Part shown: positions 6,684-43,979 of the stretch, piece by piece | How the letters are laid out: every line of letters begins with the position of its first letter | Numbering within the stretch: position 1 is the stretch's first letter | Origin: Eubacteriales bacterium | Lineage (GTDB): Bacteria > Bacillota > Clostridia > Oscillospirales > CAG-272 | Assembly (NCBI GenBank): GCA_045541735.1 | Contig: JAZQJQ010000138.1 | Coordinates: 11,034 to 75,033, forward strand | DNA: 64,000 nt | Direction of reading: 5' to 3' | Notes under the pieces: generated by a model | Told to the model about the DNA's origin: nothing | Databases searched by the model: none | Seen by the model: the letters and a program-made list of their open reading frames with translations, nothing else | Position numbers and translations under genes: made by a program

Positions 6684-6685
6684 TT

Positions 6686-7624
6686 TTACGCCTCCTTATT
6701 TTTTTCGGTTTTTGCAAAAAATCTAAACGTCATCGGCCACAGACCTCCGCCGACAATGACCATAATAAAATAACGAAAAGCACGGGCAACGTATTCATTT
6801 CCGAACAATGCTTCAAGAGGCGTTCTCATTCCCTCTTTAACGGCAAGCACAAGGCCTATTCCTATAATTACCTTTATTATCTGCGCCCACCATGCAGCCT
6901 TAGTTTCAAAATGAACGAACTTGATATCAAGAGTGTATACGGCGATAAGGCCGAGCATGCAACCGAGAAGGGTGTATGCGTTTTTAACTGCTGAGTTAAG
7001 ATTATGTATATTTGCCTCCGTATAAACGTCCGCGGGAAACGGATAAAGACTTACAAAACACATAAACAGAATTACTGCAAGTGTTATCCCTGTAAGGATC
7101 GCATACATCGTAATCGGCGACTTTTCCGCCTTTTTAAAAAGCGGATAAAGACCGAAGATAAAAACAAGCGCAACGCCAACGGAAACACATACGTCAGCCG
7201 GTGTATGAACGCCGAGATACATACGCGAAAGCGGAACGAGAACGCAAAGCGCAATCATGATGCAGCGCAGTATTTTTCCTTTATTCCATCTTGCGACACC
7301 ACCGAAAAGACCGACAGAAGTCTGCGTGTGTCCGCTCGGGAAAGAATAACCTGATGCCGCCTCCTTTGCGGTTTCTACTATGGTAAAATTCGGGTCCTTC
7401 ACCCAAGGTCTGGGAACTCTGAAGAGCATTTTCAGGAACTGATTTACCGCAGTACCAAGAAATCCAGCGCAAAGAAGATAATATCCCTGATACTTGCTTA
7501 CACACCAGAAGATTATCATTCCGACCGCCATAAAAACGGTCTCCTCGCCGCAGAGGGTAATGACCGAGAACAGTGCATCGAGCACTGAATTTCTCAACCC
7601 CTCAAGAAAATATAGAAAGGACAT
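6686..7624 (-). CDS. PAP2-family lipid phosphatase (membrane)
   Basis: The three PAP2 motifs are present: KMLFRVPRP, SFPSGHT, SRMYLGVHTPADV. Multiple TM helices. Confidence 0.8.
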   Translation of the reverse strand: MSFLYFLEGLRNSVLDALFSVITLCGEETVFMAVGMIIFWCVSKYQGYYLLCAGFLGTAVNQFLKMLFRVPRPWVKDPNFTIVETAKEAASGYSFPSGHTQTSVGLFGGVARWNKGKILRCIMIALCVLVPLSRMYLGVHTPADVCVSVGVALVFIFGLYPLFKKAEKSPITMYAILTGITLAVILFMCFVSLYPFPADVYTEANIHNLNSAVKNAYTLLGCMLGLIAVYTLDIKFVHFETKAAWWAQIIKVIIGIGLVLAVKEGMRTPLEALFGNEYVARAFRYFIMVIVGGGLWPMTFRFFAKTEKNKEA

Positions 7625-17270: not shown

Positions 17271-18700
17271 TTTACTGCATCTCCACTGTTAAAATTATAT
17301 ATTAACGAGTCTAAAAGCTCGCATCTGGCTGTTAAAAAGTCCGTTATCTGCTTTATTTGATCTACGCTTGCATTCGGCGCATCCGGGTAAAGCGTTGTTT
17401 CGTATTCATAGCATTCAAACGGAATGGACGAAATAAACTCACTGTACCGCGCAATAAGCTTTTCGGTAGCTAAGATATCCGACCTAAGCTCAGTATATCT
17501 TAGTTTAAAGCGCTCCGTATAGTTATTAAGTATTCTGTCCCACAGTAGGTTGTCCGTTCCCGAGGAGATCCTTCCCTCCTCCGTAACCGAAGGTAACGAG
17601 AAGTCGAACGGTAGATACCCGCTTCCGTCGAACACCAGTCCGCAGGCAGTGTCAAGATCATACAAATTCGGGATCCAGCGCTCGCCGTCGTAGGTAAGCA
17701 GGATCATATTTTTTGAAAAATTATCCGTTAGACCCAAAACGTAAGCTGTGATCAAATAGTCAATTGCCGCATCAACGTCAAGATGCTTTTCTATGCCCTC
17801 GGTAAAACTATCTCCGTCGTTTTCCATTACAAAACCGATAAGCCTATCCAAGCTGATATAAGGAGCTTCGGAGCTTTCATCGTAAGCATATTCAAGATCA
17901 AAAACTGCGGCTTTATCCTCTTCTGTCATCAACGACCTGAAGTTTGCGGCATCGGATCCGATGCTGTTTATTACGAACATCGCTTCGTTTTTATCATCAG
18001 CAATATCATAAGTAGAGTTATCCTTGGGAATATTGAAGGTGTACAGTCCCTGATATCTTCCGTTGATGAACAAGGCAACGGGAAATCCGTCAAGCCCGCC
18101 GGCAAATTCCAATCGCGCAATGTTATTATCAAGTTTTTTTCTGCTTAAAACCACGTCGCTCCAGATATTAGAAGAAACGATGTTTCTTGCACTGCTAAAG
18201 TCTATGTAATTCGCTTTTAAGTAATATTTATGGGTTGCATCCCATCCGTTTATGGAAACGTCGTTTTTTTCGTGCTTCTGATCGCTTTTATAAAACTGAA
18301 GCGTGTAATTTTTCTTATCAAAGAGTATCGAGGTATGTCCCTGATACCTAACGTTAACGTGAGACTCAAATACGGTATCGCTATCGTAATACTTAGCATA
18401 CAGCATAACCGCGGAGTCTTTGGCTATTCCGTCGATATTGCCGTCCAAATAAAGCTGCGGCAGTTTGACCGTTGCGTTGACCGTTTCGGTTATTTCAAAA
18501 TGGCATTTTACGCAATGCTTCACCTTTTCTCCGGGTCTGAAATCAGAGGGAGCAACCGTTTCCTTGAACTCCGAAAATGAGTGCTCGCATTCGGCATCCT
18601 TATGATCCGACAAAACGGGGGCGAGCAAAACAGTACCCGATATCAATAACAGCAACGTTACAAAAGAAACGACGTTACCGAGTTTATCGTGCTTTTTCAT
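17267..18700 (-). CDS. CotH-family atypical protein kinase, secreted or membrane-anchored
   Basis: CotH-like segments KYYLKANYIDFSSARN and NFSKNMILLTYDGERWIPNLYDLDTACG. N-terminal TM/signal MKKHDKLGNVVSFVTLLLLISG. Start moved to ATG 18700 behind SD gggaggg. Stop overlaps the start of the giant gene (ATGA at 17267-17270). Confidence 0.8.
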   Translation of the reverse strand: MKKHDKLGNVVSFVTLLLLISGTVLLAPVLSDHKDAECEHSFSEFKETVAPSDFRPGEKVKHCVKCHFEITETVNATVKLPQLYLDGNIDGIAKDSAVMLYAKYYDSDTVFESHVNVRYQGHTSILFDKKNYTLQFYKSDQKHEKNDVSINGWDATHKYYLKANYIDFSSARNIVSSNIWSDVVLSRKKLDNNIARLEFAGGLDGFPVALFINGRYQGLYTFNIPKDNSTYDIADDKNEAMFVINSIGSDAANFRSLMTEEDKAAVFDLEYAYDESSEAPYISLDRLIGFVMENDGDSFTEGIEKHLDVDAAIDYLITAYVLGLTDNFSKNMILLTYDGERWIPNLYDLDTACGLVFDGSGYLPFDFSLPSVTEEGRISSGTDNLLWDRILNNYTERFKLRYTELRSDILATEKLIARYSEFISSIPFECYEYETTLYPDAPNASVDQIKQITDFLTARCELLDSLIYNFNSGDAVK

Positions 18701-18741
18701 ATTACCCTCCCATCTTAATCGTATAATACTCCATATTATAT

Positions 18742-18770
18742 ATAATATCAACCTAAATTTATTTAGTCAA
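18742..18770 (-). promoter_or_regulatory. Putative sigma-A promoter of the CotH/giant-protein operon
   Basis: Minus strand TTGACT - 17 nt - TATTAT. Confidence 0.35.
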
Positions 18771-18853: not shown

Positions 18854-21313
18854 TCACTTTTTAAGTCCGAGTCTTTCAACAGACTCGTCGCGCATCTTGT
18901 ATTTAAGTATCTTGCCTGCGGCATTCATCGGGAATTCATTTACAAAGATGAAGTAGCGCGGTACCTTATGGCGCGCAATGGATGCATTTCCGTACTCCTT
19001 CATCTCCGCTTCATCCGCAGTCTCTCCCTTATGAAGAATCACCCAAGCACAGCATTCCTCGCCGTATCTTTCATCCGGCACGCCGACAACCTGTACGTCG
19101 CGCACTTTGGGATTGGTAAGATAGAACTCCTCTATCTCGCGTGGATAGAGATTCTCTCCTCCGCGGATTATCATATCTTTGAGACGTCCCGTTACCTTGT
19201 AGTATCCATCGGGAGTGCGGCAGCAAATATCTCCCGAATGGAGCCAGCCGTCCTCGTCGATAGCCTGAGCGGTAGCCTCGGGCATCTTATAATAACCCTT
19301 CATGATGTTGAATCCGCGCGCAACGAATTCTCCGCTCTCTCCATCCGGAAGCTCCAATCCTGTCTCGGGGTCGATGATCTTACATTCAACACCGGGGAAA
19401 GCGCTTCCGACGGTCTCAACGCGATGGTCGAGGTCCTCGTTGACCTCACCCATTGTACATCCGGGCGATGCCTCGGTCTGTCCGTACACGGAGATTATCT
19501 CGCGCATATTCATCTCAACGGAAGCACGGCGCATAAGGTCTGCGGGGCAGTTAGCGCCTGCCATAATGCCCGTGCGCATATAGGAAAAGTCTGTTTTTGC
19601 AAAATCTGCGTGGTTGAACATGGCGATAAACATCGTGGGTACGCCGTTAAAGCATGTAATATGCTCGTCGTTTACGCACGCAAGTGACGACTTCGGCGAA
19701 AAGTACGGAATGGGGCAAAGCGTTCCTCCGTGTGTCATCATCGACGTCATAGAAAGAACCATTCCAAAGCAATGGAACATAGGAACCTGTATCATCATTC
19801 TGTCAGCAGTGGAGAGGTCCATTCTGTCGCCGATGGTTTTGCCGTTGTTTACTATGTTACGGTGTGTAAGCATAACACCTTTGGGAAATCCGGTGGTACC
19901 CGAGGTATACTGCATATTGCAAACGTCATCGGGCTTTACAAGCGATGCACGGCGGCGGACTTCTTCCATAGGAACCATTGCGGAACGCGCAAGCATCTGC
20001 TCGTAGGTAAGGCATCCCTGCATAGAGAATCCGACTGTCACGACGTTGCGCAGGAAAGGAAGATTCTTGGAGTACAAAGGTTCTCCGGGAGAGAGCGAAT
20101 CAAGCTCGGGGCAAAGCTCATGTACGATCTCCTTGTAATTAATATCCTTGCAGTACTCTATCATAACGAGGGTATGAGTATCCGACTGCTTTAACAGATA
20201 TTCGATCTCGTGGATCTTATACGCTGTGTTGACCGTCACAAGAACAGCGCCAATCTTTGTAGTCGCCCAGAAGGTAATAAACCACTCGGGAACGTTAGTC
20301 GCCCATACTGCAACGTGGTCGCCCGCCTTAACTCCGAGCGAGATAAGCGCGGCAGCGCACTCATCGACGTCTCGCCTGAACTGAGTATACGTTCTTGTAT
20401 AATCAAGCGTGGGATATTTAAAAGCGTACTGATCGGGATACTTTTCAGCCATTGTATCAAGTACGTCCGCAAAGGTAGCATCAATAACGTCGTACTTTTT
20501 CCAAACGAAGGTTCCGGTTTTTGCTCGGTTATAATATACGCGGTCGTAATTGCCTTTTTTCCTGCCGAGGCCTGAAACATAGTTTGCAAAATGAGTGAGA
20601 ACGATATCCGCGTCGTTTATCTCTTCATTCCACGCGGCACAGATAAATCCATCGTAATTAAGAGAAGAGAGAGCGTTAATAAGCTTCTCTACGGGAAGCT
20701 CACCCTCGCCGATAAGCACGGTCTTTCCGTCCTTCATATCACCGAGGCGAACGTATTTGATATAAGCACCAAGGGTCTTTATTGTAGTTTCCGCAGTTTC
20801 TCCGGCGTAGAAATACGTGCCCCTTACGTTCCAGGAAACACCGATAGCGGCAGAAGAAAAGTAATTGATAAGCTCTATTATATTCTCGGTATTTGCAAGG
20901 TAGCCAACGGTCTCAAAGAGAATACGAACACCGCTCTTTTCTGCACACTTTATAGCGCTTTCAAGCTTTTCGTTAAGTATATCGCGGCTTACTTCCCTTT
21001 CAATGCGTACGATGACGTCCTCAACTCCGGACGATGCCGCCATATCAACGTATTTAACGAGAACGTCGGAGCTTGCCTCCCCGTTATCGAGAGAAACGGG
21101 ATAATGCAATGCAGAAACGGCAAGGTCGCGGTTAAAGAGTTTTCTTTTAGAATCTGCAACGCGGTCGCGGCGAAGAACGCTGTCGTGATGCTGAAAGCGT
21201 TCCTTTAACGCATCATATATTTCAAAGCCGGAAAAACCGTAATCATAGGCATATCGGCAAGTGTCAAGGAACGAGGCACGAGAAACGTGCTTCGTTGAAA
21301 ACACGATTTTCAT
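18854..21313 (-). CDS. Fusion protein: N-terminal xylose-isomerase-like TIM-barrel (sugar phosphate isomerase/epimerase family) plus C-terminal AMP-forming acyl-CoA ligase
   Basis: aa 1 to approx 255 look like the AP-endonuclease-2/xylose isomerase-like TIM barrel (GFSGFEIYD..., VRILFETVG). aa approx 265-819 carry YTSGTTGFPKGVMLTH, GYYKMPEATA, WLHSGD, GRLKDMIIRGGENLYPREIE and GKILK adenylation motifs. Confidence 0.8.
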   Translation of the reverse strand: MKIVFSTKHVSRASFLDTCRYAYDYGFSGFEIYDALKERFQHHDSVLRRDRVADSKRKLFNRDLAVSALHYPVSLDNGEASSDVLVKYVDMAASSGVEDVIVRIEREVSRDILNEKLESAIKCAEKSGVRILFETVGYLANTENIIELINYFSSAAIGVSWNVRGTYFYAGETAETTIKTLGAYIKYVRLGDMKDGKTVLIGEGELPVEKLINALSSLNYDGFICAAWNEEINDADIVLTHFANYVSGLGRKKGNYDRVYYNRAKTGTFVWKKYDVIDATFADVLDTMAEKYPDQYAFKYPTLDYTRTYTQFRRDVDECAAALISLGVKAGDHVAVWATNVPEWFITFWATTKIGAVLVTVNTAYKIHEIEYLLKQSDTHTLVMIEYCKDINYKEIVHELCPELDSLSPGEPLYSKNLPFLRNVVTVGFSMQGCLTYEQMLARSAMVPMEEVRRRASLVKPDDVCNMQYTSGTTGFPKGVMLTHRNIVNNGKTIGDRMDLSTADRMMIQVPMFHCFGMVLSMTSMMTHGGTLCPIPYFSPKSSLACVNDEHITCFNGVPTMFIAMFNHADFAKTDFSYMRTGIMAGANCPADLMRRASVEMNMREIISVYGQTEASPGCTMGEVNEDLDHRVETVGSAFPGVECKIIDPETGLELPDGESGEFVARGFNIMKGYYKMPEATAQAIDEDGWLHSGDICCRTPDGYYKVTGRLKDMIIRGGENLYPREIEEFYLTNPKVRDVQVVGVPDERYGEECCAWVILHKGETADEAEMKEYGNASIARHKVPRYFIFVNEFPMNAAGKILKYKMRDESVERLGLKK

Positions 21314-21314
21314 A

Positions 21315-22703
21315 TTACTCCTCCTCGAACACTATCTTATTGAGTGCATTTATGTATGCTCTGATACTTGCGGCAACAATGTCGGTAGAGATACCGTTAC
21401 CGGAATAAAGCTTACCGTTATTACGCAGGCGGACAAGCGCCGAGCCGAGCGCTTCCTTGCCCTCGGTTACGGACTGTACCTGAAAGTCATCCAGCTCGTA
21501 GTGATAACCCACGCACTGTTCGATAGCGCGGAAAGCGGAATCAATGGGGCCGTCGCCAATACTTACACCGGATATCGTCTCGCCGTTGCATTTAAGAGTA
21601 ACTTGAGACATCGATCCTGTAAGATTACTGCTGTTAGTTGTATAATTATCAAGATGATATGTTGAAGGAGCCTGCATTGCAGAGCTTGCGATAAGTGCCT
21701 CAAGCTCCTTAGCTCCGACTGCATCCTTCTTTTCGCATACCTGGATCAGCGCCTTATGAACGTTTCCGCAATCGGAATCGGAAAGATCGTAGCCAAGCAG
21801 GCTGGCAGCCTGAGCCACTTGCGCTATCGTGCTATCTCCGTCAAGCAGGATCTTCTTCTTTTCGCTTACCGCGGAATCGTCCTCGTAAGCCTCATGATTA
21901 ATACTTGAAAGCATATCATCGATGCTTGCATGGATCTTTGTGTTGTTGAGCTTTGTTTCAGCATCTATTCTAGCTCCGCAAACACCGATCGCGTCGCAGA
22001 TAGCACCGGTTTGCAAAACGTCCTTGCCCGCCATCGCACACTTAACTCCGTCAGCACCGGAGCAAACGGCCGCAAGCGCAGATGCAACAGACATATTGAT
22101 ACGGTCCGATACCTGCACGTAAACTGGAATACCTACCGCACTCTTGAGCTTAGCGGCAAGAGATGCTATCTCCTCAGGCATTGCTATTCCCGCATCGTCG
22201 CACACGTTTACAGCAGTTGCGCCGTTCTCTTCTGCACTCTTAGCAACAGAAACGAGAAAATCAATATCCGTGCGCGTAGCGTCAAGCGCAGAAAACTCTA
22301 CGTCCGCGCAATAAGTTTTAGCAAAAGAAACAAGCTTGGCTATCTTATCGAGCATCTTTTCAGCCTTTACGTGATAGGTGTACTCCATCTGCACGGTCGA
22401 GGTAGGAAGCTCGATCTGGAGACGTGGATGCTTTGCATCTTTGACACATTCCCAAGCATTTGTGATCTCTTCCTCGCTGAATCCGGCAGGAATGACCACA
22501 GCGGCGTTCTGTACGTTCTTCGAAACTGTTTTGTAGATAATTGTATCTTCGCGCAGATTTTTTATGGGTGCAAGCTCTATCGCATCAACACCGATAGCAT
22601 CGGCGCAAGCCGCTATCGCTGTTTTTTCACGGAACAGAAGCGCAACTGCCCTATCCTCCGCAAGCTTTTTAAGCGTAATGTCCGAAACGTAGATCTTTTT
22701 CAT
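21315..22703 (-). CDS. 2-isopropylmalate synthase-like pseudoenzyme: degenerate HMGL/DRE-TIM catalytic domain with a retained LeuA-dimer (leucine-binding regulatory) domain
   Basis: Canonical DTTLRDGEQ is replaced by SDITLKKLAED, and canonical HxHNDxG by VQVSDRIN. The C-terminus keeps a LeuA_dimer-like segment: GDGPIDSAFRAIEQ...DDFQVQSVTEGKEALG...STDIVAASIRAYINALNKI. Confidence 0.7.
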   Translation of the reverse strand: MKKIYVSDITLKKLAEDRAVALLFREKTAIAACADAIGVDAIELAPIKNLREDTIIYKTVSKNVQNAAVVIPAGFSEEEITNAWECVKDAKHPRLQIELPTSTVQMEYTYHVKAEKMLDKIAKLVSFAKTYCADVEFSALDATRTDIDFLVSVAKSAEENGATAVNVCDDAGIAMPEEIASLAAKLKSAVGIPVYVQVSDRINMSVASALAAVCSGADGVKCAMAGKDVLQTGAICDAIGVCGARIDAETKLNNTKIHASIDDMLSSINHEAYEDDSAVSEKKKILLDGDSTIAQVAQAASLLGYDLSDSDCGNVHKALIQVCEKKDAVGAKELEALIASSAMQAPSTYHLDNYTTNSSNLTGSMSQVTLKCNGETISGVSIGDGPIDSAFRAIEQCVGYHYELDDFQVQSVTEGKEALGSALVRLRNNGKLYSGNGISTDIVAASIRAYINALNKIVFEEE

Positions 22704-22744
22704 TTGTTAGCTCCTTTTATAACAAGATTTAGGGCAAATATCAA

Positions 22745-23013
22745 CAAAAAAACGTTTTCGTCTCCTTGTTGACTCAAAGAGACGAAAACGTAATCAAATA
22801 ACATTTCCGCGGTACCACTCTTCTTCATCCAAACGGATGCCCTCAGATGCTATCACATCGCACTCTGTAACGGGAGTTCCCGTCCGCCCCTACTGCAAGT
22901 TCACGGCAGCCGCTCCGCGGTGAGTTCGGCAGATACTTCCCAATGCCTCGCACCAACCGACATCTCTCACCAGGCGAAGAAATCCGCTTACTATTCCGCA
23001 TCACTGCGTTTAA
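22745..23013 (-). promoter_or_regulatory. T-box riboswitch leader, probable Leu specifier CUC
   Basis: Minus strand reads ...GGUGAGAGAUG (AG bay)...GGUGCGAG...GCCGAA-CUC-ACC (specifier CUC at 22924-22922 followed by A)...AGAGUGGUACCGCGG (T-box motif, 22807-22820). Terminator hairpin acgttttcgtctc / gagacgaaaacgt (22752-22791) plus U7. Confidence 0.8.
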
Positions 23014-23021
23014 CTTATTGC

Positions 23022-23050
23022 ATTGTATCACAACAAAACGGCATTGTCAA
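23022..23050 (-). promoter_or_regulatory. Sigma-A promoter driving the T-box leader
   Basis: Minus strand TTGACA - 17 nt - TACAAT, immediately upstream of the leader. Confidence 0.5.
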
Positions 23051-27735: not shown

Positions 27736-27811
27736 TGGTCTGAGTGACAAGACTTGAACTTGCGGCCTCTACCACCCCAAGGTAGCGCGCTACCAGCTGC
27801 GCCACACCCAG
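27736..27811 (-). tRNA. tRNA-Pro (anticodon GGG), CCA encoded
   Basis: Minus strand CTGGGTG-TGGCGCAGCTGGTAGCGCG-CTACC-TTGGGGT-GGTAG-AGGCC-GCAAGTTCAAGTCTTGT-CACTCAG-A-CCA. 7-bp acceptor stem with the C1:G72 pair typical of bacterial tRNA-Pro. Anticodon loop TTGGGGT. T-loop GTTCAAGTC. Confidence 0.9.
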
Positions 27812-34834: not shown

Positions 34835-34863
34835 TTGACAACATATCACGTGGGTAGTATAAT
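34835..34863 (+). promoter_or_regulatory. Consensus sigma-A promoter
   Basis: TTGACA (34835-34840) - 17 nt - TATAAT (34858-34863). Confidence 0.6.
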
Positions 34864-34894
34864 ATCAGAGTATTTTAATATGGAGGAGAAGGTT

Positions 34895-35131
34895 ATGTAT
34901 TTCGGCAATTATTCAAACCGTAATACCAAAGATGCAAATCGCTTTGCACCTTCTTCTTTCTCTGCGCTTATGAGCCTTTCTGCAGACATTGCCGATGCAA
35001 TGTCTGTTTTGTTTATCTGCGCTATTATTGCGATAATTATGATTTCCGTTCCCCTTGCGATAATTATTTCCGCAATAATTATTCCCGTCATTATGATTTG
35101 CAAAAACCGCGCACTGCCAAGCAAACGGTGA
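34895..35131 (+). CDS. Small hydrophobic protein (78 aa), Ile-rich double-TM
   Basis: SD ggaggagaagg 4 nt upstream of ATG 34895, about 30 nt after the consensus promoter. The longer track ORF (34679) spans the promoter and is rejected. Confidence 0.45.
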   Translation: MYFGNYSNRNTKDANRFAPSSFSALMSLSADIADAMSVLFICAIIAIIMISVPLAIIISAIIIPVIMICKNRALPSKR

Positions 35132-35212
35132 CTTACCGACACGGTCGAAAATGTGAGTTGACGGTTTTGCTTTGGCAAGACCGTTTTAGTTTTATTAGCC
35201 AAAGGAGAAGAT

Positions 35213-36493
35213 ATGGCAAATACCAAAATTGAAACAAAATGTGTGCAGGGCGGTTACGTTCCCGGAAACGGCGAGCCCCGTCAGGTACCAATTATTCAAA
35301 GCACGACATTTAAATACGATACGAGCGAGGATATGGCAAAGCTTTTTGATCTGGAGGCAAGCGGATATTTTTACTCTCGCCTGCAGAACCCGACAAATGA
35401 CTATGCAGCAGCAAAAATATGCGAACTTGAGGGCGGAAGCGCTGCTATGCTTACCTCCTCAGGTCAGGCGGCAAGCTTCTATTCTGTTTTCAACATTGCC
35501 TCTTGCGGAGACCATGTTGTTGCCTCCTCCTGCATCTACGGGGGAACGTACAACCTTTTCGCCGTTACTATGAAACGTATGGGAATCGAATTCACGTTCA
35601 TTTCCCCCGAATGCACCGATGAAGAATTCAACGCTGCGTTCCGTGAGAACACAAAGGCTGTCTTTGCAGAAACTATCGCAAATCCGGCGCTTACCGTTCT
35701 TGATATCGAGAGATTCGCCGAGATGGCTCACAACCACGGCGTTCCGCTTATCGTTGATAACACCTTTGCAACTCCCGTAAACTGCAGACCTATTGAGTGG
35801 GGTGCGGATATCGTTATCCACTCCACAACAAAGTATATGGACGGCCACGCCTCCGGCGTCGGCGGTTGCATCGTTGATTCAGGCAAATTTGATTGGACAA
35901 GATATCCCGATAAATTTCCCGGACTCTGTACACCGGACGCAAGCTATCACGGCGTTACCTACACGGAGCGCTTCGGTCTTGAGGGCGCTTACATAACAAA
36001 AGCAACCGCTCAGCTAATGCGCGACCTCGGCTCAATTCAATCCCCTCAGAACGCATTTATCCTTAACCTCGGTCTTGAGAGCCTTCACGTAAGAATGAAG
36101 CGCCATTGCGAGAACGCTCAGGCAGTTGCTGAATTCCTCGAAGCGCATGATAAGATCGCAAGCGTTAACTACTGCGGACTTGAGAGCAGCAAGTATAACG
36201 CTCTTGCCAAGAAATATCTTCCTAACGGCTCCTGCGGTGTTGTTACCTTTGAGATCAAGGGAACACGCGCTGATGCAGAGAAGTTCATGAAAAAGCTTCG
36301 CATCGGAATTATCGCAACGCACGTTGCCGATGCTCACACATGCGTTCTTCACCCGGCGAGCGCAACTCACCGTCAAATGTCTGACAGCGAGCTCGCAAGC
36401 TGTGGTATCTCTCCTAACACAATACGCTTCTCCTGCGGACTTGAAAACGCAGACGATATTATTGCAGATCTGAAGCAAGCCTTGGAGGACTGA
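35213..36493 (+). CDS. metY: O-acetylhomoserine sulfhydrylase (aminocarboxypropyltransferase), PLP-dependent
   Basis: [13 protein letters not shown]-lysine motif and full-length resemblance to MetY/CysD family proteins. Confidence 0.9.
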
Positions 36494-36494
36494 G

Positions 36495-37409
36495 ATGCCT
36501 ATAAAAATACCGGATGCCTTGCCCGCCGTAAAGGTGCTCAGTAACGAAAACATCTTCGTTATGACAGAAAGGCGCGCAATAACGCAGGATATTCGGCCTT
36601 TAAAGTTGCTGATACTCAATCTTATGCCGCTGAAGATAGACACGGAAACTCAGCTTTCCCGTCTGCTGGGGAACACTCCGCTTCAGATAGAACTTGAGTT
36701 TATTTGCACAAAGACCCACAATTCCAAAAACACGCCTCAAAGCCACTTGCAAACGTTTTACAAGCATTTTGATGATGTGAAAGACCGTCGATTCGACGGA
36801 ATGATCATCACGGGCGCTCCCGTTGAAAAGCTTGAATTTGAAGAGGTGGACCATTGGAATGAACTTTGTGAGATAATGGAATGGTCCAAAACCAACGTGC
36901 ACAGCACCTTCCACATCTGCTGGGGTGCGCAGGCAGGTCTTTACTACCACTTCGGAATTAATAAATATCCTCTCAAGGAAAAACTGTCCGGAGTATACCG
37001 CCATCACATAGTCAGAAAGACGTCAATGCTGTTCCGCGGAGCCGACGACGAGTTCTTCGTTCCCCACTCACGATACACCGAGGTACGATATGAGGACTGC
37101 GCGGCGGTACCCGAGCTTCGCGTACTTGCCCTTTCCGACGAAGCGGGAGTTTACGCGCTGTCAACTGACAACGGACGTCAGGTATTTATTACCGGGCATC
37201 CGGAATACGATGCAGATACCCTTAACAAAGAGTACACGCGCGACGTTAATGCCGGGATCGATCCGAACGTGCCGGAAAACTACTTTCTCGACGATGATCC
37301 CGCAAATCCCCCTGTTTGCAGATGGAGGAGCCACGCAAATCTGCTTTACTCAAACTGGCTTAATTACTATGTTTACCAAACCACACCTTACGACCTAAAC
37401 GAACTGTAA
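36495..37409 (+). CDS. metA: Homoserine O-acyltransferase (MetA family)
   Basis: [23 protein letters not shown]...[10 protein letters not shown]...HICWGAQA (catalytic Cys region). Confidence 0.9.
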
Positions 37410-37415
37410 GAAAGG

Positions 37416-38483
37416 ATGAATGTTATGAACATTTCAATCACAAAAACCACAACCCCCATCGAGAAGCCCACAAAGGATCTCGGCTTCGGAAAGTACTTTA
37501 CCGACCACATGTTCATTATGGACTACGTGGCAGGCGAGGGATGGAAAGATGCACGCATCGTTCCTTTTGCCCCCATCGCACTTCACCCCGCCGCAACCGT
37601 ATTCCATTACGGCGCAGAGGTATTTGAGGGACTTAAAGCTTACCGCCGTGCCGACGGTGAGATACAGTTCTTCCGTCCCATCGAAAACGCTCGCCGAATA
37701 AACAACTCTGCCGAGAGGATCCGTCTTCCCCAGATTCCCGAGGAGGACTTTATGCAGGCACTTACCGAGCTTGTTAAGCTGGATGCAGATTGGGTTCCCT
37801 CAGGAAACGGCGAATCCCTTTATCTTCGCCCCTTCCTTTTCGGAACCGACGATGCGCTTGGTCTTCACTCCATTAAGAAAGCGCGCTTTATGATAATCTG
37901 CTCTCCCAGCGGAAGCTACTATAAAGAGGGCATCAACCCCGTTAAGATCATGATAGAAGACGAGGACGTACGCGCAGTACGCGGCGGCACCGGCTACGCA
38001 AAGTGCGGCGGTAACTACGCGGCATCTAACAGAGCGGGCGAGAAGGCAGCTGAAAAAGGCTTTACTCAGGTCCTTTGGCTTGACGGTGTAGACCGTAAGT
38101 ACATAGAGGAAGTCGGCGCGATGAACGTAATGTTCAAGATAAACGGCGAGATCGTTACCCCCTCCCTTGAAGGCTCTATCCTTCCCGGTATTACAAGAAA
38201 GAGCTGCATCGAGCTTCTCCGTTCCAAAGGCTTTACCGTAACCGAGAGAAAGATCTCCATCGACGAGCTTTGCGAGGCTATGGAAAACGGCACTCTCGAG
38301 GAGGCTTGGGGCTGCGGCACCGCTGCTGTTGTTTCCCCCATCGGTCAGCTTTACTACAACGGAAAGACCTATACTATCAACAATAACGCGATCGGCAGCA
38401 CAACACAACTTCTTTACGACACCCTTACCGGAATACAGTGGGGCAGAATTGAGGACACCTTCGGATGGACGGTAAGACTGTAA
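37416..38483 (+). CDS. ilvE: Branched-chain amino acid aminotransferase
   Basis: FGKYFTDHMF, HYGAEVFEGLKAY, GGTGYAKCGGNYA, LPGITR. Confidence 0.9.
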   Translation: MNVMNISITKTTTPIEKPTKDLGFGKYFTDHMFIMDYVAGEGWKDARIVPFAPIALHPAATVFHYGAEVFEGLKAYRRADGEIQFFRPIENARRINNSAERIRLPQIPEEDFMQALTELVKLDADWVPSGNGESLYLRPFLFGTDDALGLHSIKKARFMIICSPSGSYYKEGINPVKIMIEDEDVRAVRGGTGYAKCGGNYAASNRAGEKAAEKGFTQVLWLDGVDRKYIEEVGAMNVMFKINGEIVTPSLEGSILPGITRKSCIELLRSKGFTVTERKISIDELCEAMENGTLEEAWGCGTAAVVSPIGQLYYNGKTYTINNNAIGSTTQLLYDTLTGIQWGRIEDTFGWTVRL

Positions 38484-39154
38484 AAAGAGTTACCGTATTT
38501 GCAGGACACTACGGAAGCGGAAAAACGAACATTGCCGTCAACTGTGCCCTTGAACAGAGAAAACACTTTGAAAGAGTTGCTATAGCCGACCTTGATATCG
38601 TTAATCCGTATTTTCGCTCCAAGGACGCAACAGATGTGCTTGATAAAAACGGTGTAAGACTTATATCCTCGCCCTTTGCGAACACAAACGTCGATACGCC
38701 TGCGCTTCCCGCCGAGGCTTATGCGCTGGTTCACGACAAAAGCTGCCAAGCCGTTATTGACGTCGGAGGTGATGACCGAGGCGCTCTGGCGCTCGGCAGA
38801 TACGCACCCGAGATCAAAGAAGAAAGCGATTATGATGCGCTGCTCGTTATCAATATGTACCGTCCGCTTACGGCAAATGCCGGCGACTGTGCGGAGGTGA
38901 TGCGAGAAATAGAAGCAAGTTCATCAATTCCCTTCACGGGGATCGTGAACAACTCCAATCTCGGCTCAGCCACTACGGCTGATGACGTGCTTGAAAGCAT
39001 TGAATATGCAAACGAGGTATCCAGGCTTACAGGTCTTCCGATAGTATACACCTGCGTAAAGCCGGAGCTTTACGATGCACTTAAAAATAAGATAGAAAAC
39101 TTAAAGCCTATAAGACTGTACGTACGTCAGTCTTTTGACAAAAAGGAGGAATGA
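38465..39154 (+). CDS. P-loop NTPase of unknown function
   Basis: Walker A FAGHYGSGKTN and Walker B-like AVIDVGGDD. Overlaps ilvE by 19 nt and the ferredoxin gene by 4 nt. Confidence 0.6.
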   Translation: MDGKTVKRVTVFAGHYGSGKTNIAVNCALEQRKHFERVAIADLDIVNPYFRSKDATDVLDKNGVRLISSPFANTNVDTPALPAEAYALVHDKSCQAVIDVGGDDRGALALGRYAPEIKEESDYDALLVINMYRPLTANAGDCAEVMREIEASSSIPFTGIVNNSNLGSATTADDVLESIEYANEVSRLTGLPIVYTCVKPELYDALKNKIENLKPIRLYVRQSFDKKEE

Positions 39155-39360
39155 AGATGCCTAAGGTATCATTCAACGAAAAGCTTTGCAAGGGCTGCGG
39201 ACTTTGTGTTACCGTTTGCCCCAAGAAGATAGTTGCTCTAAAAAAAGAGCTCAATGATAAGGGATACCACCCCGCGGAAGTAACCGACAGCAGCAAATGT
39301 ATCGGATGCGCTTTCTGTGCTACCATTTGCCCCGACTGCGTTATAACCGTTGAAAAGTAA
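39151..39360 (+). CDS. 2-oxoacid:ferredoxin oxidoreductase delta subunit (2x[4Fe-4S] ferredoxin)
   Basis: CKGCGLCVTVCP and CIGCAFCATICP. Confidence 0.8.
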   Translation: MKMPKVSFNEKLCKGCGLCVTVCPKKIVALKKELNDKGYHPAEVTDSSKCIGCAFCATICPDCVITVEK

Positions 39361-39373
39361 GGAGGACTTTATT

Positions 39374-40435
39374 ATGGCAAAAGTACTTATGAAGGGTAAC
39401 GAAGCTATGGCGGAAGCCGCTATCATGGCAGGCTGCAGACATTACTTCGGCTATCCTATAACCCCCCAGACTGAAGTTGCAGCCTATATGGCAAAGAGAA
39501 TGCCCAAGATCGACGGCGGAGTTTTTCTCCAGGCAGAAAGCGAAATAGCTGCTATTAATATGGTTATAGGCGTTGCCTCTACAGGCAAGCGCGTTATGAC
39601 ATCTTCTTCAAGTCCCGGAATATCTCTGAAAAGCGAGGGACTTTCCTACCTTGCTGGATGCGATCTTCCTGCCCTTGTTGTTAACGTACAGCGCGGCGGT
39701 CCCGGACTCGGCGGCATCCAGCCTTCTCAGTCCGATTACTTCCAGGCAACCAGAGGCGGCGGACACGGAGATTACCATATGATAGTTCTTGCCCCCTCCT
39801 CCATTCAGGAGATGGTAAGCCTTACCGTTAAGGGCTTTGACCTTGCGGATAAATACCGTATGACGTCTATGATACTCGCAGACGGTACTATGGGTCAGAT
39901 GATGGAGCCGGTTTCCCTTGACGTCGGCGAGGTGAAGAGCTACGAAAAACCTTGGGCGCTTACCGGCACCAAATGTGAAAGAAAGCCTAACATAGTTAAC
40001 TCACTCTTCCTTAAACCCGACGAGCTTGAGGTATTCAACAACGCGAGATACGCAAAGTATGCTGATATCTGCAAGACAGAGGCTATGCACGAGGAATACC
40101 GTATGGATGATGCCGAGATCTGCATCGTTGCTTTCGGTATTGCTGCAAGAGTTGCGCAAAATGCAATTGACGAGGCAAGAGCGCGCGGTATCAAGGTCGG
40201 TATGATCCGTCCCATCACCGTATGGCCCTTCCCTAAGGATGCACTCGCTAAAGCTGCTGACAAGGTTAAAGCTTTTATTTCCGTTGAGCTTAATATGGGT
40301 CAGATGATCGAGGACGTTGAGCTTGCAATTCGTTGCAGAAAACCTGTTCTCTTCTGCGGACGCAGCGGCGGCATGATACCCACAACCGAGGACATCGCAG
40401 TTAAGATCCACGAAGCCGCACAGATCGGAGGTTGA
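39374..40435 (+). CDS. 2-oxoacid:ferredoxin oxidoreductase alpha subunit (VorB/KorA-like)
   Basis: MKGNEAMAEAAIMAGCRHYFGYPITPQTE is typical. Start set at ATG 39374 behind SD aaggagga. Confidence 0.85.
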   Translation: MAKVLMKGNEAMAEAAIMAGCRHYFGYPITPQTEVAAYMAKRMPKIDGGVFLQAESEIAAINMVIGVASTGKRVMTSSSSPGISLKSEGLSYLAGCDLPALVVNVQRGGPGLGGIQPSQSDYFQATRGGGHGDYHMIVLAPSSIQEMVSLTVKGFDLADKYRMTSMILADGTMGQMMEPVSLDVGEVKSYEKPWALTGTKCERKPNIVNSLFLKPDELEVFNNARYAKYADICKTEAMHEEYRMDDAEICIVAFGIAARVAQNAIDEARARGIKVGMIRPITVWPFPKDALAKAADKVKAFISVELNMGQMIEDVELAIRCRKPVLFCGRSGGMIPTTEDIAVKIHEAAQIGG

Positions 40436-40439
40436 AATA

Positions 40440-41186
40440 ATGATAGTATTTGAAAAACCTAAAGCACTTACGGATGCGCCCCTGCATTACTGCCCCGGCT
40501 GCACCCACGGAATTATTCACCGCCTTGTTGCTGAGGCTATTGACGAGCTCGGCGTTCAAGGAAGAACCATCGGAGTTGCATCTGTCGGATGCTCCGTATT
40601 TACTTACAACTACTTCAACGTCGATATGGTGCAAGCGGCTCACGGACGTGCTCCCGCGGTTGCAACGGGCATCAAGCGTTCCGACAGCAACAATATCGTG
40701 TTCACTTATCAAGGCGACGGCGACCTTGCCGCGATCGGTACTGCTGAGACCGTGCACAGCGCCGCAAGGGGAGAGAACATTACGGTTATTTTCGTTAACA
40801 ACGCAATTTACGGTATGACAGGCGGACAGATGGCGCCCACCTCCCTGCCCGGTCAGGTTACGCAGACCTCTCCTTACGGACGTGACGTTAACACCGTCGG
40901 TTACCCCGTTAAAGTCTGCGAGATGCTTTCTCAGCTTGACGGTGCAACATATCTCGAAAGAGTTGCCGTAAACAACATCAAAAACATCAAGGCCGCTAAG
41001 GCTGCTATCAAGAAGGCTTTTCAGAATCAGATCGAGGGCAAGGGTTTCTCCCTTGTCGAGGTTCTTTCCACCTGCCCTACCAACTGGGGCAAAACTCCCG
41101 CAGACGCATTAAAATGGCTTGAGGAGAACATGCTTCCCTACTATCCTCTCGGCGTTTACAAGGACAAGACTAAGGAGGAAAAGTAA
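40440..41186 (+). CDS. 2-oxoacid:ferredoxin oxidoreductase beta subunit (TPP-binding)
   Basis: YCPGCTHG, GDGDLAAIG, NNAIYGMTGGQ. Confidence 0.85.
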   Translation: MIVFEKPKALTDAPLHYCPGCTHGIIHRLVAEAIDELGVQGRTIGVASVGCSVFTYNYFNVDMVQAAHGRAPAVATGIKRSDSNNIVFTYQGDGDLAAIGTAETVHSAARGENITVIFVNNAIYGMTGGQMAPTSLPGQVTQTSPYGRDVNTVGYPVKVCEMLSQLDGATYLERVAVNNIKNIKAAKAAIKKAFQNQIEGKGFSLVEVLSTCPTNWGKTPADALKWLEENMLPYYPLGVYKDKTKEEK

Positions 41187-41728
41187 TGAACACAAAGATC
41201 CTTATCGCAGGCTTCGGCGGACAGGGCATACTGTTTGCGGGCAAGTTTCTTGCCTATGAGGCTCTTTTGAGCGAAAAGGAGGTAAGCTGGCTTCCCTCCT
41301 ACGGTCCCGAGATGCGCGGCGGCACCGCAAATTGCAGCATCATAATCAGCGATACTCTTATCGGTTCTCCCATCGTTGACAAGCCTGACATTCTCGTTGC
41401 AATGAACGGCCCTTCCTTTGATAAATACGAAAATGACGTACCGGCAGACGGTGCAATATATCTCGATAGTTCACTTATCGACAGAAAGTCAGATCGCACC
41501 GATGCAAACGTATATTACATTCCCGCAACCGCTATGGCCGGCGACAACGGACTTAACGGACTTGCAAATATGATTATGCTCGGATGTGTGATCAAACACA
41601 GCGGAATAATGACTCTTGATTCTGCAAAGACGGCTATGGAAAAACTTGTTCCCGCAAAGAAGCAGGAAATGCTTGCACTGAATATCCGTGCACTTGAGCT
41701 CGGATACAATTACGAAGGAGATAAGTAA
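41186..41728 (+). CDS. 2-oxoacid:ferredoxin oxidoreductase gamma subunit
   Basis: [15 protein letters not shown]...[13 protein letters not shown]. Confidence 0.85.
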
Positions 41729-42279
41729 TGAACGAGCAGATCAAGGATATAGGTATGCGCCTCCGCACCCTCCGTGAGGATATGGAGATCTCCGCAGAGG
41801 AGATGGCTGCAAAGCTTGAAGTTGACCTTGATACTTATGAGGCATACGAAAGCGGCGACCAGGACTTTTCCTTCAGCGTTATCTACAATGCCGCCGAAAT
41901 TCTCGGTGTTGACGTGCTTGACCTGATAAGCGGTAATGCCCCCACGCTTTCTATGTGCAGTATGGTAAAAAAAGGCAAGGGTTATTCCGTAAAACGCGAG
42001 CACGAGTACGACTATAAGCATCTTGCTTATACATTTCGAAACAAGAAGGCTGAGCCCTTCCTTGTCACCATAAATCCCGACCCCAATCCCCCGGTTATGC
42101 ACGGACACGATGGTCAGGAATTCAACTACGTTATCTCCGGAAAGATGATGCTCTACATCGGAGACATTTCATACGAGCTTTCTAAGGGCGACAGTGTGTA
42201 CTTTGACTCCAGCGTTCCTCACGCAGAGGTAGCACTCGGCGATAAGCCTGCGGAATTCATCGCGGTAGTTATCAAGTAA
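41728..42279 (+). CDS. XRE HTH plus cupin-domain transcriptional regulator
   Basis: N-terminal IGMRLRTLREDMEISAEEMAAKL and C-terminal cupin GHDGQEFNYVISGKM...GDSVYFDSSVPH. Confidence 0.8.
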   Translation: MNEQIKDIGMRLRTLREDMEISAEEMAAKLEVDLDTYEAYESGDQDFSFSVIYNAAEILGVDVLDLISGNAPTLSMCSMVKKGKGYSVKREHEYDYKHLAYTFRNKKAEPFLVTINPDPNPPVMHGHDGQEFNYVISGKMMLYIGDISYELSKGDSVYFDSSVPHAEVALGDKPAEFIAVVIK

Positions 42280-42296
42280 TATCCGGAGGACTATAA

Positions 42297-43979
42297 ATGC
42301 CAATCTACGAAAAATTTGTCGGTGCATCACGCGACGATTTCCTTTCTCTTAAGGATGCACAGCACAACTACAACCTCACTTTCAAGGATAATTTTAACTT
42401 TGCCTATGACGTTCTTGACGAGCTTGGCAAAACAAAACCGGACAAGCTCGCTATGATCTGGGTGGGTGAGAACGGCGAAGAAAAGCGCTTCACATTCCGT
42501 GATATGATGCTTTACTCCAACAAAGCCGCAAATTATTTCAAATACCTCGGTATAAAGAAGGGCGACCGAGTTATGCTCGTTCTCAGAAGGAGCTATTACT
42601 TCTGGTTCTGTTTTCTCGGTCTCCACAAGATAGGCGCTATCGCTATTCAGGCGACGGATATGCTGAAAGCAAAAGACTACATTTACCGTTGCAACGCCGC
42701 AAAGGTTAAATGTGTTATAATCACGGGACACGGTAACTGTACCGAAAACTTTGACGAGGGCGCGGACAAGTGTGAGACTGTAGAAATTAAGCTTGTAGGC
42801 GGTCGCAAGAATGCGGGCGAGAGTTGGTTCGACCTTGAGCAAGGAATTGCTATGGCAAGTGATAAATGGCAGCGCCCCACCGGAAAGGAAGCGACAAAAG
42901 CAGACGATACGATGCTTCTCTCCTTCTCATCCGGCACCAGCGGATATCCCAAAATGGTATGCCACAACTTCAAGTATCCCCTCGGTCACATTATGACGGG
43001 TGTTTTCTGGCACAGAGTTGTCGACGGCGGTCTTCACTTCACCATTTCCGATACCGGATGGCTCAAGTCGCTTTGGGGCAAGATGTACGGACAGTGGTTC
43101 GGCGAAAGTGCCATATTAGTTTACGATTTTGACAGATTTGTTGCTAAGGACATCCTATCCGTAATGGAAAAATACAAGGTTACTACCTTCTGTGTTCCTC
43201 CTACGATGTACCGTATGCTTCTTGAAGAGGGCATTGAAAAATACGATCTCTCTTCCCTTACCCACTGCTGCTCTGCGGGTGAAGCTCTTAACCCCGATAT
43301 TTTCAACAAATGGAAAGAGCTTACCGGTCATAAGATCTACGAAGGCTTCGGACAGACAGAGACTTGCATCTGCATAGGAACTCTCTATCCTTGGACTGAG
43401 CCAACCCCAGGTACGCTTGGGCTTCCGATTCCCGGAATGGACGTTCACATCCTTGATGCAGACAGCCAGTCCTGCCCGCGCGGAAGCGTTGGAGAGATAT
43501 GCATCCGTGTACTTTCCGCAAAAAGAAAAGCGTGCGGAGTTCTCGACTCCTACAATATGAGCACGGAAGATACGGCAAAGGCAATGCACGACGGATTCTA
43601 CCACACAGGTGACCTTGCTTACAGAGATGAAAAAGGACTTTTCCGCTACGTTGGCAGAAATGACGACGTTATCAAGTCCTCGGGTTACCGCATCGGTCCC
43701 TTCGAGATCGAAAGCGTTATGCTTGAGCACGATGCAGTAAAGGAGGTTGCCGTAACCGGAGTTCCCGATAAAGTAAGAGGCTTTGTCGTTAAAGCAACTG
43801 TTGTACTTGCAGACGGCTTTGAAGGCACCACGGAGCTTACCAAAGAGCTTCAGGACTACGTTAAAAAGAACACTGCTCCCTACAAATACCCGAGAATCAT
43901 CGAATACTGTGATGAGCTGCCCAAGACCTTCAACGGCAAGATCAGAAGAAGCGAGATCAGAGCAAACGATGCTAAATGA
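42297..43979 (+). CDS. AMP-forming acyl-CoA synthetase (medium/short-chain type)
   Basis: SFSSGTSGYPKMV, YEGFGQTE, YHTGDLAYRDEKGLFRYVGRNDDVIKSSGYRIGPFEIES, NGKIRR. Confidence 0.85.
   Translation: MPIYEKFVGASRDDFLSLKDAQHNYNLTFKDNFNFAYDVLDELGKTKPDKLAMIWVGENGEEKRFTFRDMMLYSNKAANYFKYLGIKKGDRVMLVLRRSYYFWFCFLGLHKIGAIAIQATDMLKAKDYIYRCNAAKVKCVIITGHGNCTENFDEGADKCETVEIKLVGGRKNAGESWFDLEQGIAMASDKWQRPTGKEATKADDTMLLSFSSGTSGYPKMVCHNFKYPLGHIMTGVFWHRVVDGGLHFTISDTGWLKSLWGKMYGQWFGESAILVYDFDRFVAKDILSVMEKYKVTTFCVPPTMYRMLLEEGIEKYDLSSLTHCCSAGEALNPDIFNKWKELTGHKIYEGFGQTETCICIGTLYPWTEPTPGTLGLPIPGMDVHILDADSQSCPRGSVGEICIRVLSAKRKACGVLDSYNMSTEDTAKAMHDGFYHTGDLAYRDEKGLFRYVGRNDDVIKSSGYRIGPFEIESVMLEHDAVKEVAVTGVPDKVRGFVVKATVVLADGFEGTTELTKELQDYVKKNTAPYKYPRIIEYCDELPKTFNGKIRRSEIRANDAK

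Follow-up and report, generated by a model that had tools for sequence, protein, structure and literature searches.

A 64,000-nucleotide (nt) stretch of a Eubacteriales bacterium (Oscillospirales, CAG-272; assembly GCA_045541735.1, contig JAZQJQ010000138.1, positions 11,034 to 75,033 of the forward strand) was analysed and is referred to here as the window. Its subject is a two-gene operon on the minus strand, in which a leucine-specific T-box leader precedes a degenerate paralog of isopropylmalate synthase (IPMS, LeuA) encoded by open reading frame 1 (ORF1; pseudo-IPMS), and a fusion of a TIM barrel with an AMP-forming acyl-coenzyme A (CoA) ligase encoded by ORF2. The operon was followed through related genomes, and a role in leucine synthesis from isovalerate is proposed for it. 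All of its elements lie on the minus strand, as listed below.

23022..23050, minus strand: sigma-70-type promoter, TTGACA-17-TACAAT with extended -10 TG (11 of 12 consensus matches)
22775..23013, minus strand: T-box leader with Stem I and specifier loop, Stem II/III region and T-box/antiterminator (RF00230)
22922..22924, minus strand: specifier CUC (Leu) in the context GAA-CUC-A, with a purine after the codon (Rfam alignment and sequence)
22808..22819 (about 22821-22807), minus strand: T-box core AGAGUGGUACCGCGG / AGUGGUACCGCG, with UGGN (Rfam and sequence)
22745..22791, minus strand: intrinsic terminator with 17-bp stem (22791-22752), 6-nt loop and T7 (sequence and fold)
21315..22703, minus strand: ORF1, pseudo-IPMS, 462 amino acids (aa), with LeuA-like TIM barrel, linker and intact LeuA_dimer regulatory domain (Pfam, alignments and model)
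20528..21313, minus strand: xylose-isomerase-like TIM-barrel domain of ORF2, aa 1-262 (Pfam, model and profile alignment)
18854..20491, minus strand: AMP-forming acyl-CoA ligase domain of ORF2, aa 275-819, proposed isovalerate-CoA ligase (Pfam and motifs)

The T-box covariance model RF00230 matched the leader over its full length (model positions 1-219) with 122.1 bits (gathering score 93, E = 1.5e-26). A tRNA with discriminator A73 ends in ACCA, to which UGGU of the T-box core would pair. The terminator was the dominant element in the minimum-free-energy fold of the leader, and CGUUUUCGUCUC is common to the 5' arm of the terminator and the 3' arm of the antiterminator, so that the two structures are mutually exclusive. 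The original prediction, made from the sequence alone, had named a consensus promoter, a Leu T-box with the specifier context GAA-CUC-A and a terminator ending in seven U. Each of these was recovered, with the hexamers and 17-nt spacing of the promoter, the CUC specifier under the covariance model and seven T after the 17-pair stem.

ORF1 combines an HMGL-like domain (Pfam, E = 9e-31) with a LeuA_dimer domain (E = 4e-32). In pairwise alignments to solved IPMS structures, the DTTLRDGEQ site reads DITLKKLAE. Here the Arg is replaced by K12, the metal-binding Asp by K13, Glu by A15 and Gln by E16, with L14 in between. The HxH(D/N)D site reads VQVSD, and both metal-binding His are replaced by Val (V195, V197). 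The GERAGNA loop is missing. None of the LeuA equivalog models reached its cutoff for ORF1, the top model being NF002086 with 259.8 bits (cutoff 532). Judged by these residues, the 462-aa LeuA paralog is catalytically dead and unable to perform IPMS chemistry. An AlphaFold model of ORF1 (predicted local distance difference test score, pLDDT, 89.9) matched structures of IPMS, methylthioalkylmalate (MAM) synthase and full-length M. tuberculosis LeuA, and its barrel superposed at 1.7 Å on IPMS catalytic domains.

When 1.84 billion representatives were searched exhaustively with ORF1, without a profile, a deep family of proteins of 455-480 aa emerged, with identity down to 29%. RDGEQ, HxH and GERAGNA are all missing in 105 of 105 aligned full-length representatives (clustered at 50% identity), and are all kept by the true LeuAs found at the foot of the match list. 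Two further full-length, LeuA-like proteins of 503-511 aa (P0248 and P0267) are partly degenerate, with DTTLCDGEQ and IRAYNDLG or DSTLCEGER and VHSQNDLG, and may bridge true LeuA and the pseudo-IPMS family.

The regulatory domain shows 57% identity within the pseudo-IPMS family and 37-38% to true LeuAs, which is the same value as that of true LeuAs among themselves. For the barrel, identity to true LeuAs is 28%, compared with 50% among true LeuAs. Nearly every conserved position of the regulatory domain is common with LeuA, including GDGPID, STDI and AY..A.NK. The ratio of non-synonymous to synonymous substitution rates (dN/dS) against 79 relatives was ~0.04 in the regulatory domain, compared with 0.10-0.12 in barrel and linker; synonymous sites were mostly saturated. 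By these measures the conservation pattern is inverted relative to that of an enzyme, the regulatory domain being the most and the barrel the least conserved part. A pseudogene or decaying gene was considered and rejected on account of the dN/dS values of 0.02-0.12, the saturated synonymous sites and the intact frames in all loci.

The probable role of pseudo-IPMS is that of a leucine sensor, as the original prediction had suggested. This is in keeping with a regulatory domain that is conserved more strongly than the rest of the protein and resembles LeuA as closely as true LeuAs resemble one another. Taken as a claim of its own, argued from conservation patterns and gene coupling, we give this sensor role close to an even chance, if slightly under it. 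The barrel speaks to a different explanation, namely that the 462-aa protein is a neo-functionalised enzyme or a channelling scaffold, which might bind isovaleryl-CoA or a 2-oxoacid in its remodelled barrel and pass it on to the oxidoreductase described below, or might catalyse a metal-independent step, and not a sensor. Purifying selection acts on the barrel remnant (dN/dS ~0.12), it contains family-specific invariant or near-invariant residues (F24, P100, E107, Y108, K113), it keeps residues of the LeuA substrate region (D8, T10, S102, D141, R144, D169), and its fold relatives include DmpG-type aldolases that channel intermediates to CoA-dependent partners. Against these points, the residues needed for DRE-TIM metallolyase chemistry were lost in all 105 representatives, conservation is lowest in the barrel and highest in the regulatory domain, and no cofactor-binding motif was gained. 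We consider an enzyme or scaffold of this kind unlikely.

A sensor would have company among pseudoenzyme regulators. The locus presents a dead paralog that is under purifying selection and whose gene adjoins that of a catalytic partner in 88 of 88 related loci, mostly at a distance of 1 nt or with an overlap. HisZ with HisG and the prozyme of S-adenosylmethionine decarboxylase (AdoMetDC) are likewise dead paralogs of a pathway-related enzyme, retained under purifying selection, co-expressed with the catalytic partner and plausible carriers of end-product control. Pseudo-IPMS differs from both in deriving from an enzyme of an alternative pathway (LeuA) and not from the family of its partner, and a complex with the ligase, or allostery acting on it, is proposed here from sequence.

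ORF2 (21313-18854, minus strand, 819 aa) has its start codon 1 nt past the stop of ORF1. Its Pfam domains are AP_endonuc_2 (aa 20-230), AMP-binding (aa 287-675, E = 6e-94) and AMP-binding_C (aa 726-801, E = 4e-16). The core motifs A3, A5, A7, A8 and A10 of the ligase are complete (TSGTTGFPKG, YGQTE, HSGD, GRLKD and PMNAAGK). Across loci whose pseudo-IPMS proteins are 50-78% identical, the ligase domain is 77-95% identical, with dN/dS of ~0.02. Recent horizontal spread was rejected as the cause of ligase identities of 90% and more, since synonymous sites were saturated. The best solved structures for the ligase were feruloyl-, fatty-acyl- and malonyl-CoA synthetases, and a substrate was named by none of its NCBIfam or solved-structure matches.

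The TIM-barrel domain was assigned to AP_endonuc_2 with 58.4 bits (gathering score 31.1). Its model (pLDDT 90.4) was nearest to UlaE and ketose 3-epimerases (template modelling score, TM, 0.74; 13-16% identity). Sequence comparison of the domain with the PDB gave weak matches only, and a homologue search with it returned fragments of the same fusion and neither a free-standing nor a named relative. Metal-ligand columns were placed by a profile that included distant relatives and was aligned to MJ1311. At the positions which we take, from ketose 3-epimerases and the MJ1311 alignment, to be the canonical Glu-Asp-His-Glu (E-D-H-E) ligands, the window clade has E134, N162, R189 and A226, and three of the four ligands are lost. 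The barrel is kept under selection (dN/dS ~0.08). It is probably non-catalytic in the window clade. In the distant fusions (L085:7068-9575, L087:9401-11908 and L088:9416-11920, in each case the N-terminal ~270 codons) the E-D-H-E motifs read LWDVHH, HVHIKD and SLEL or SLEW, and the barrel may be, or may once have been, a real enzyme.

What had been predicted for the two proteins also held. An IPMS fold that has lost its catalytic signatures had been claimed for the first, and alignment placed K12, K13, V195 and V197 at active-site positions; the C-terminal LeuA-dimer domain, said to be retained, is present. The 819-aa fusion of a TIM barrel with a complete AMP-forming ligase 1 nt downstream was found as described, with domains and ANL motifs intact. 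Neither protein had been thought to match a characterised enzyme, and indeed no NCBIfam cutoff was reached. Public copies with a source name are called only 'hypothetical protein', 'AMP-binding protein' or 'TIM barrel protein'.

Every one of the 88 related loci examined, 83 of them close and 5 distant, has the two genes next to each other. The 83 close loci comprise 80 species-level genome loci and 3 metagenome loci and were counted where the contig reaches far enough. ORF1 and ORF2 are separated by 1 nt in 57 loci and overlap by 4 nt in 3, and the other flanking genes are unrelated from locus to locus. In aligned leaders with a T-box core, the specifier column reads CTC in 72 of 73 and CTG in the remaining one, while the neighbouring bases vary (for example GAA-CTC-A, GGT-CTC-G and CCT-CTC). 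Rfam confirmed the T-box in each scanned locus of this Leu-leader group. The pair is hosted by uncultured members of the Oscillospiraceae, Acutalibacteraceae, Christensenellaceae, Lachnospiraceae and other Clostridia, represented by metagenome-assembled genomes (MAGs) that were recovered from sheep, goat, deer and buffalo, with rumen, colon and faeces as the sampled material. Fragments of the fusion were also found in Spirochaetales MAGs.

Additional T-box cores were detected upstream of neighbouring ligases in sister loci. Specifiers were counted with a strict fixed-offset rule, alignments and Rfam alignments; a loosened rule mis-picked overlapping triplets and was discarded. A first group of HTH_3-Cupin_2::AMP-ligase genes carries AUC (Ile) in 30 of 30 leaders, and a second group GUA (Val) in 15 of 15. 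The GUA group scored 78 bits with Rfam, which is under the gathering score; its codon is nonetheless the same throughout, with variable flanks. Leaders of a PaaK-like ligase carry GAA-UUC (Phe) in 5 of 6 cases, with UGC in L055 as the exception. Examples of Ile and Val leaders are L022:7294-7530(-), L022:4615-4862(-) and L008:11946-12185(+), with ~45 more. The Phe unit is located at L008:5492-5737(+) with an ORF at 5800-7116, and also occurs in L007, L009, L012, L049 and L055, beside Leu and Ile units. In L008 the Phe, Leu and Ile units stand in a row with unrelated genes on both sides.

The closest family of the HTH-cupin ligases in these sister loci is MbcS (440-450 bits, below cutoff), that of the PaaK-like protein is PaaK, and the TIM::ligase is 23-25% identical to the MbcS-like ligases. 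Because Ile, Val and Phe T-boxes precede MbcS-like and PaaK-like ligases, the pair is placed, on its leader and neighbours, as the Leu member of a set of acid-CoA ligases switched by amino acids. Purified MbcS activates 2-methylbutyrate and isobutyrate and handles isovalerate poorly (PMC10026030), which leaves isovalerate for a different ligase. MbcS of Staphylococcus aureus (PMC10026030, PMC11167679) resembles the ORF2 ligase as an AMP-forming enzyme that converts exogenous short branched-chain acids to CoA thioesters, and its relatives adjoin the pair and carry the Ile and Val T-boxes. It differs in that the TIM::ligase is PRK12583-like, belongs to another subfamily, carries a TIM barrel at its N-terminus and is partnered by pseudo-IPMS, and in that MbcS feeds fatty-acid and not amino-acid synthesis. 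The Phe T-box before the PaaK-like ligase suggests T-box-gated phenylalanine synthesis from phenylacetate. That conversion goes back to Allison 1965, as cited in PMC7356843, and the sister-locus unit would be its counterpart; compared with the pair, its ligase is of another family, has no pseudoenzyme partner and is not present in the window.

In 3 distant loci (34-38% identity) the pair stands in one gene string with a class IV aminotransferase gene (ilvE), a CbiA/ParA-like gene, a four-subunit 2-oxoacid:ferredoxin oxidoreductase (Fer4 delta, alpha, beta and gamma) and HTH_3-Cupin_2-linked AMP ligases. Cluster proteins of the distant loci were used as queries against all loci. A cluster gene was found within ~8 kb of the pair in 26 of 37 close loci with adequate flanks, and the oxidoreductase or ilvE lies near the pair in 16 of these 37, in several orders and orientations. 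The window itself holds the whole cluster on the plus strand (37416-43979), 14 kb from the pair, as part of a companion operon with the following features.

34835..35185, plus strand: leader with a promoter matching 12 of 12 consensus positions, a 78-aa Ile-rich ORF (34895-35131, 15 Ile) and a hairpin (35160-35185) (sequence)
35213..37409, plus strand: Cys_Met_Meta_PP enzyme and homoserine O-acyltransferase (Met-pathway-type), head of the companion operon (domain annotation)
37416..38483, plus strand: ilvE, proposed last step from 2-oxoisocaproate to Leu (NF009897, 480.7 bits, cutoff 307)
38465..41728, plus strand: CbiA/ParA-like P-loop protein and four-subunit VOR-type oxidoreductase (Fer4 delta, VorB alpha, beta, gamma) (domains)
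41728..43979, plus strand: HTH_3-Cupin_2 protein and MbcS-like short branched-chain acyl-CoA ligase (MbcS, 416.6 bits, below cutoff 850)

VorB of the window, the alpha subunit of ketoisovalerate:ferredoxin oxidoreductase (VOR), was identified by NF005507 with 527.9 bits (cutoff 399). The MbcS-like ligase of the window probably activates 2-methylbutyrate or isobutyrate, as judged by its family match. A VOR-type oxidoreductase and a branched-chain aminotransferase are thus found linked to an activating enzyme, and this linkage recurs across loci. AMP-forming ligases are effectively irreversible, and the cluster therefore points to assimilation of acids and not to their production. The CbiA/ParA-like P-loop gene (window 38465-39154, plus strand) always lies between ilvE or the ligases and VOR delta, as in L022, L030, L085, L087 and L088. 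No Pfam family reached E = 0.001 for the window copy, which is possibly a maturation or assembly factor of the oxidoreductase.

The 78-codon Ile-rich ORF in the leader of the companion operon contains AIIAIIMISVPLAIIISAIIIPVIMI and is followed by a terminator-like hairpin with a T-run. This region (34835-35185) is a candidate Ile leader-peptide attenuator; the ORF could alternatively encode a small membrane protein. Leader-peptide attenuation is, to our knowledge, unusual for Firmicutes. A similar arrangement was found in four loci (L044, L047, L052, L056) where the pair heads an ilvE-VOR operon without a T-box. Their leaders have a consensus promoter and an ORF of 34-36 codons in which Ile and Leu form a run (such as ANILLLIAIIILAII, MNMSAFFTANILLLIAIIILAIIKQDKNSAVCRVLR). 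After this ORF, directly before the pseudo-IPMS start, comes a GC hairpin followed by several T; the elements lie ~200 nt upstream of that start (e.g. L047:7780-8000). Such a leader looks like a second, leader-peptide control of the same genes. The attenuator-like leaders of both kinds again point to biosynthesis. In two distant pair-ilvE-VOR operons the leaders (L085:5230-5664 and L087:7674-8000) are AT-rich and 330-430 nt long, with neither a T-box core nor an obvious leader peptide, and for the L087 leader Rfam, scanned by E-value, gave no match.

Rumen anaerobes form leucine from isovalerate, isoleucine from 2-methylbutyrate, valine from isobutyrate and phenylalanine from phenylacetate by reductive carboxylation (Allison and co-workers, as cited in PMC7356843; for the isovalerate route, Allison et al. 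1962, 1966, cited there). The four specifiers Leu, Ile, Val and Phe match these four classical reactions. The operon is best explained as a leucine-specific entry module through which isovalerate carboxylation is fed in gut and rumen anaerobes, a reading that we consider likely with the sensor part included, and we place more confidence in the role of the ligase than in the model as a whole. On the strength of the T-box, the original prediction had guessed at activation of isovalerate or a related acid for leucine salvage, and this guess gains support from the recurrent linkage to ilvE and VOR and from the sister Ile, Val and Phe T-boxes.

In the proposed mechanism, uncharged tRNA-Leu(GAG) would pair with the CUC specifier and with the UGGU bulge. 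The antiterminator would thereby be stabilised, with readthrough into the two translationally coupled genes. The 819-aa ligase would convert isovalerate, ATP and CoA to isovaleryl-CoA. A VOR-type oxidoreductase, encoded 14 kb off in the window and directly adjacent in many relatives, would reductively carboxylate isovaleryl-CoA to 4-methyl-2-oxopentanoate (2-oxoisocaproate), from which IlvE would form leucine by transamination. Pseudo-IPMS would form a complex with the ligase and pass leucine feedback to it in the manner of HisZ with HisG, and would add a second, allosteric layer of leucine control, as LeuA does in the classical pathway. More speculatively, the fused TIM barrel might serve as a docking and transmission module for pseudo-IPMS, the two degenerate barrels giving the contact. 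The widest form of the model, in which gut and rumen Clostridia run a dedicated biosynthetic system under end-product control, four T-box switches (Leu, Ile, Val, Phe) gate four ligases into ferredoxin-dependent carboxylation ('reverse Stickland') and a LeuA-derived allosteric leucine sensor acts on the isovalerate-CoA ligase via a second degenerate TIM barrel, is put forward tentatively, at somewhat less than even odds.

Several observations weigh against the entry-module model. No T-box motif was found in the more distant members (L078, L083 and L084-L088 examined). In the window, VOR and ilvE are outside the control of the Leu T-box, 14 kb off and behind a different leader. The top NCBIfam model of the ligase is the generic PRK12583 (NF009233) 'fatty acid CoA ligase family', with 665.5 bits at a cutoff of 832. 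The barrels of the distant L085 and L088 fusions keep the full E-D-H-E set, and this intact site hints at an enzymatic step, at least an ancestral one, that lies outside the proposed model. For leucine binding and for a complex of pseudo-IPMS with the ligase, the arguments are conservation and gene coupling. Finally, isovaleryl-CoA also primes iso-fatty acids, so that lipid synthesis, besides leucine synthesis, may draw on it.

The last point can be extended to an explanation in which isovaleryl-CoA from the ligase serves chiefly to prime iso-branched fatty acids, sparing scarce leucine, and not to build leucine. MbcS of Staphylococcus aureus sets a precedent with 2-methylbutyrate and isobutyrate (PMC10026030), and the ligases neighbouring the pair are MbcS-like. 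A Leu T-box would be sensible for leucine sparing too, and that of the window governs the ligase pair only and not VOR or ilvE. The repeated linkage of the pair to ilvE and VOR, often in one gene string, speaks for amino-acid synthesis, as do the Met-pathway-type genes of the companion operon behind an amino-acid-type leader. The Phe-specifier T-box before the PaaK-like ligase follows the same logic, and we know of no use of phenylacetyl-CoA as a fatty-acid primer. As the main function, primer supply is considered quite unlikely. The leucine and lipid uses of isovaleryl-CoA are not mutually exclusive, and primer supply is plausible as an additional use.

The generic family match and the E-D-H-E barrels bear on a further explanation, in which the ligase acts on another acid (isocaproate, 2-hydroxyisocaproate or a medium-chain fatty acid) and the TIM barrel supplies a second catalytic step. 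The ligase falls in a broad medium-/long-chain-like subfamily, and the complete barrel site of the distant relatives suggests a once-bifunctional fusion. Near the pair, however, no dehydratase, dehydrogenase or CoA-transferase genes of an isocaproate/2-hydroxyisocaproate route were seen; the Leu, Ile, Val and Phe specifiers with four ligase types fit the four classical substrates of reductive carboxylation; and the TIM barrel of the window clade is without three of the four metal ligands. We regard a substrate other than isovalerate, handled in this way, as very improbable and retain the isovalerate entry module as the preferred reading.

The proposed system may be compared with the ilv-leu operon of B. 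subtilis, whose T-box leader also has the Leu specifier CUC. Both have a terminator/antiterminator switch under such a leader, and in both a protein with the LeuA regulatory domain, in B. subtilis the feedback-inhibited LeuA itself, is associated with the first committed step. The window operon differs in its LeuA homologue, which has lost catalysis, in an acyl-CoA ligase as the presumed enzyme of the committed step, and in a pathway that would begin with an external C5 acid and not with 2-oxoisovalerate and acetyl-CoA. With the rumen work on isovalerate carboxylation the operon shares the habitat (rumen, colon and faeces MAGs) and the predicted chemistry, and genes for the required VOR and IlvE lie beside the pair or in its vicinity; the earlier work, as cited in PMC7356843, was physiological and isotopic. 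In the open-access literature we found no gene assigned to the isovalerate activation step and no description of the gene pair, the pseudo-IPMS family, the TIM::ligase fusion or T-box-controlled acid-CoA ligases. As kinds, the T-box, the ANL ligase and the chemistry of the pathway were all known before. In that literature no precedent was found for assigning the activation step, for a LeuA-derived pseudoenzyme family, for a TIM::ligase fusion or for ligase units matched to specifiers.

The conversion of isovalerate to leucine and the matching Ile, Val and Phe routes have been part of the physiology of rumen bacteria for about sixty years, and the carboxylation routes explain the need of fibre-degrading bacteria for branched-chain volatile fatty acids (VFAs). 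The locus is a concrete candidate for the committed step, with its amino acid labelled by the T-box specifier, and the gene pair could be used as a marker for annotating isovalerate-to-leucine capacity in metagenomes. If the model is true, a widespread LeuA-derived pseudoenzyme family, with well above 100 clusters at 50% identity, joins the few dead-paralog regulators as a new class, two domain fusions with only generic annotations are explained, and the committed step of isovalerate carboxylation receives its first genetic definition. This would be relevant to branched-chain VFA supplementation in ruminant nutrition and to the recycling of protein-fermentation products by gut anaerobes.

Other features of the window and of related loci were recorded. 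Directly downstream of the operon, a CotH-family kinase-like protein of 494 aa (17267-18751, minus strand) is followed by a secreted protein of 2448 aa with many leucine-rich-repeat-like and Cys-rich repeats (9924-17270, minus strand). Both probably function at the cell surface or in adhesion and have no connection with the operon. A THF riboswitch stands upstream of an ECF-transporter/folylpolyglutamate synthase pair at L001:15780-15879 (minus strand), and a match to the Gut-1 small RNA was found in the flanking DNA at L075:13267-13343 (plus strand). In the window, tRNA-Pro(GGG) is located at 27736-27811, and a protein of 853 aa at 30917-33478 (minus strand), which combines a C-terminal phage MuF domain with a polyvalent-protein-type ADP-ribosyltransferase domain, hints at a prophage or mobile-element remnant near this tRNA gene.

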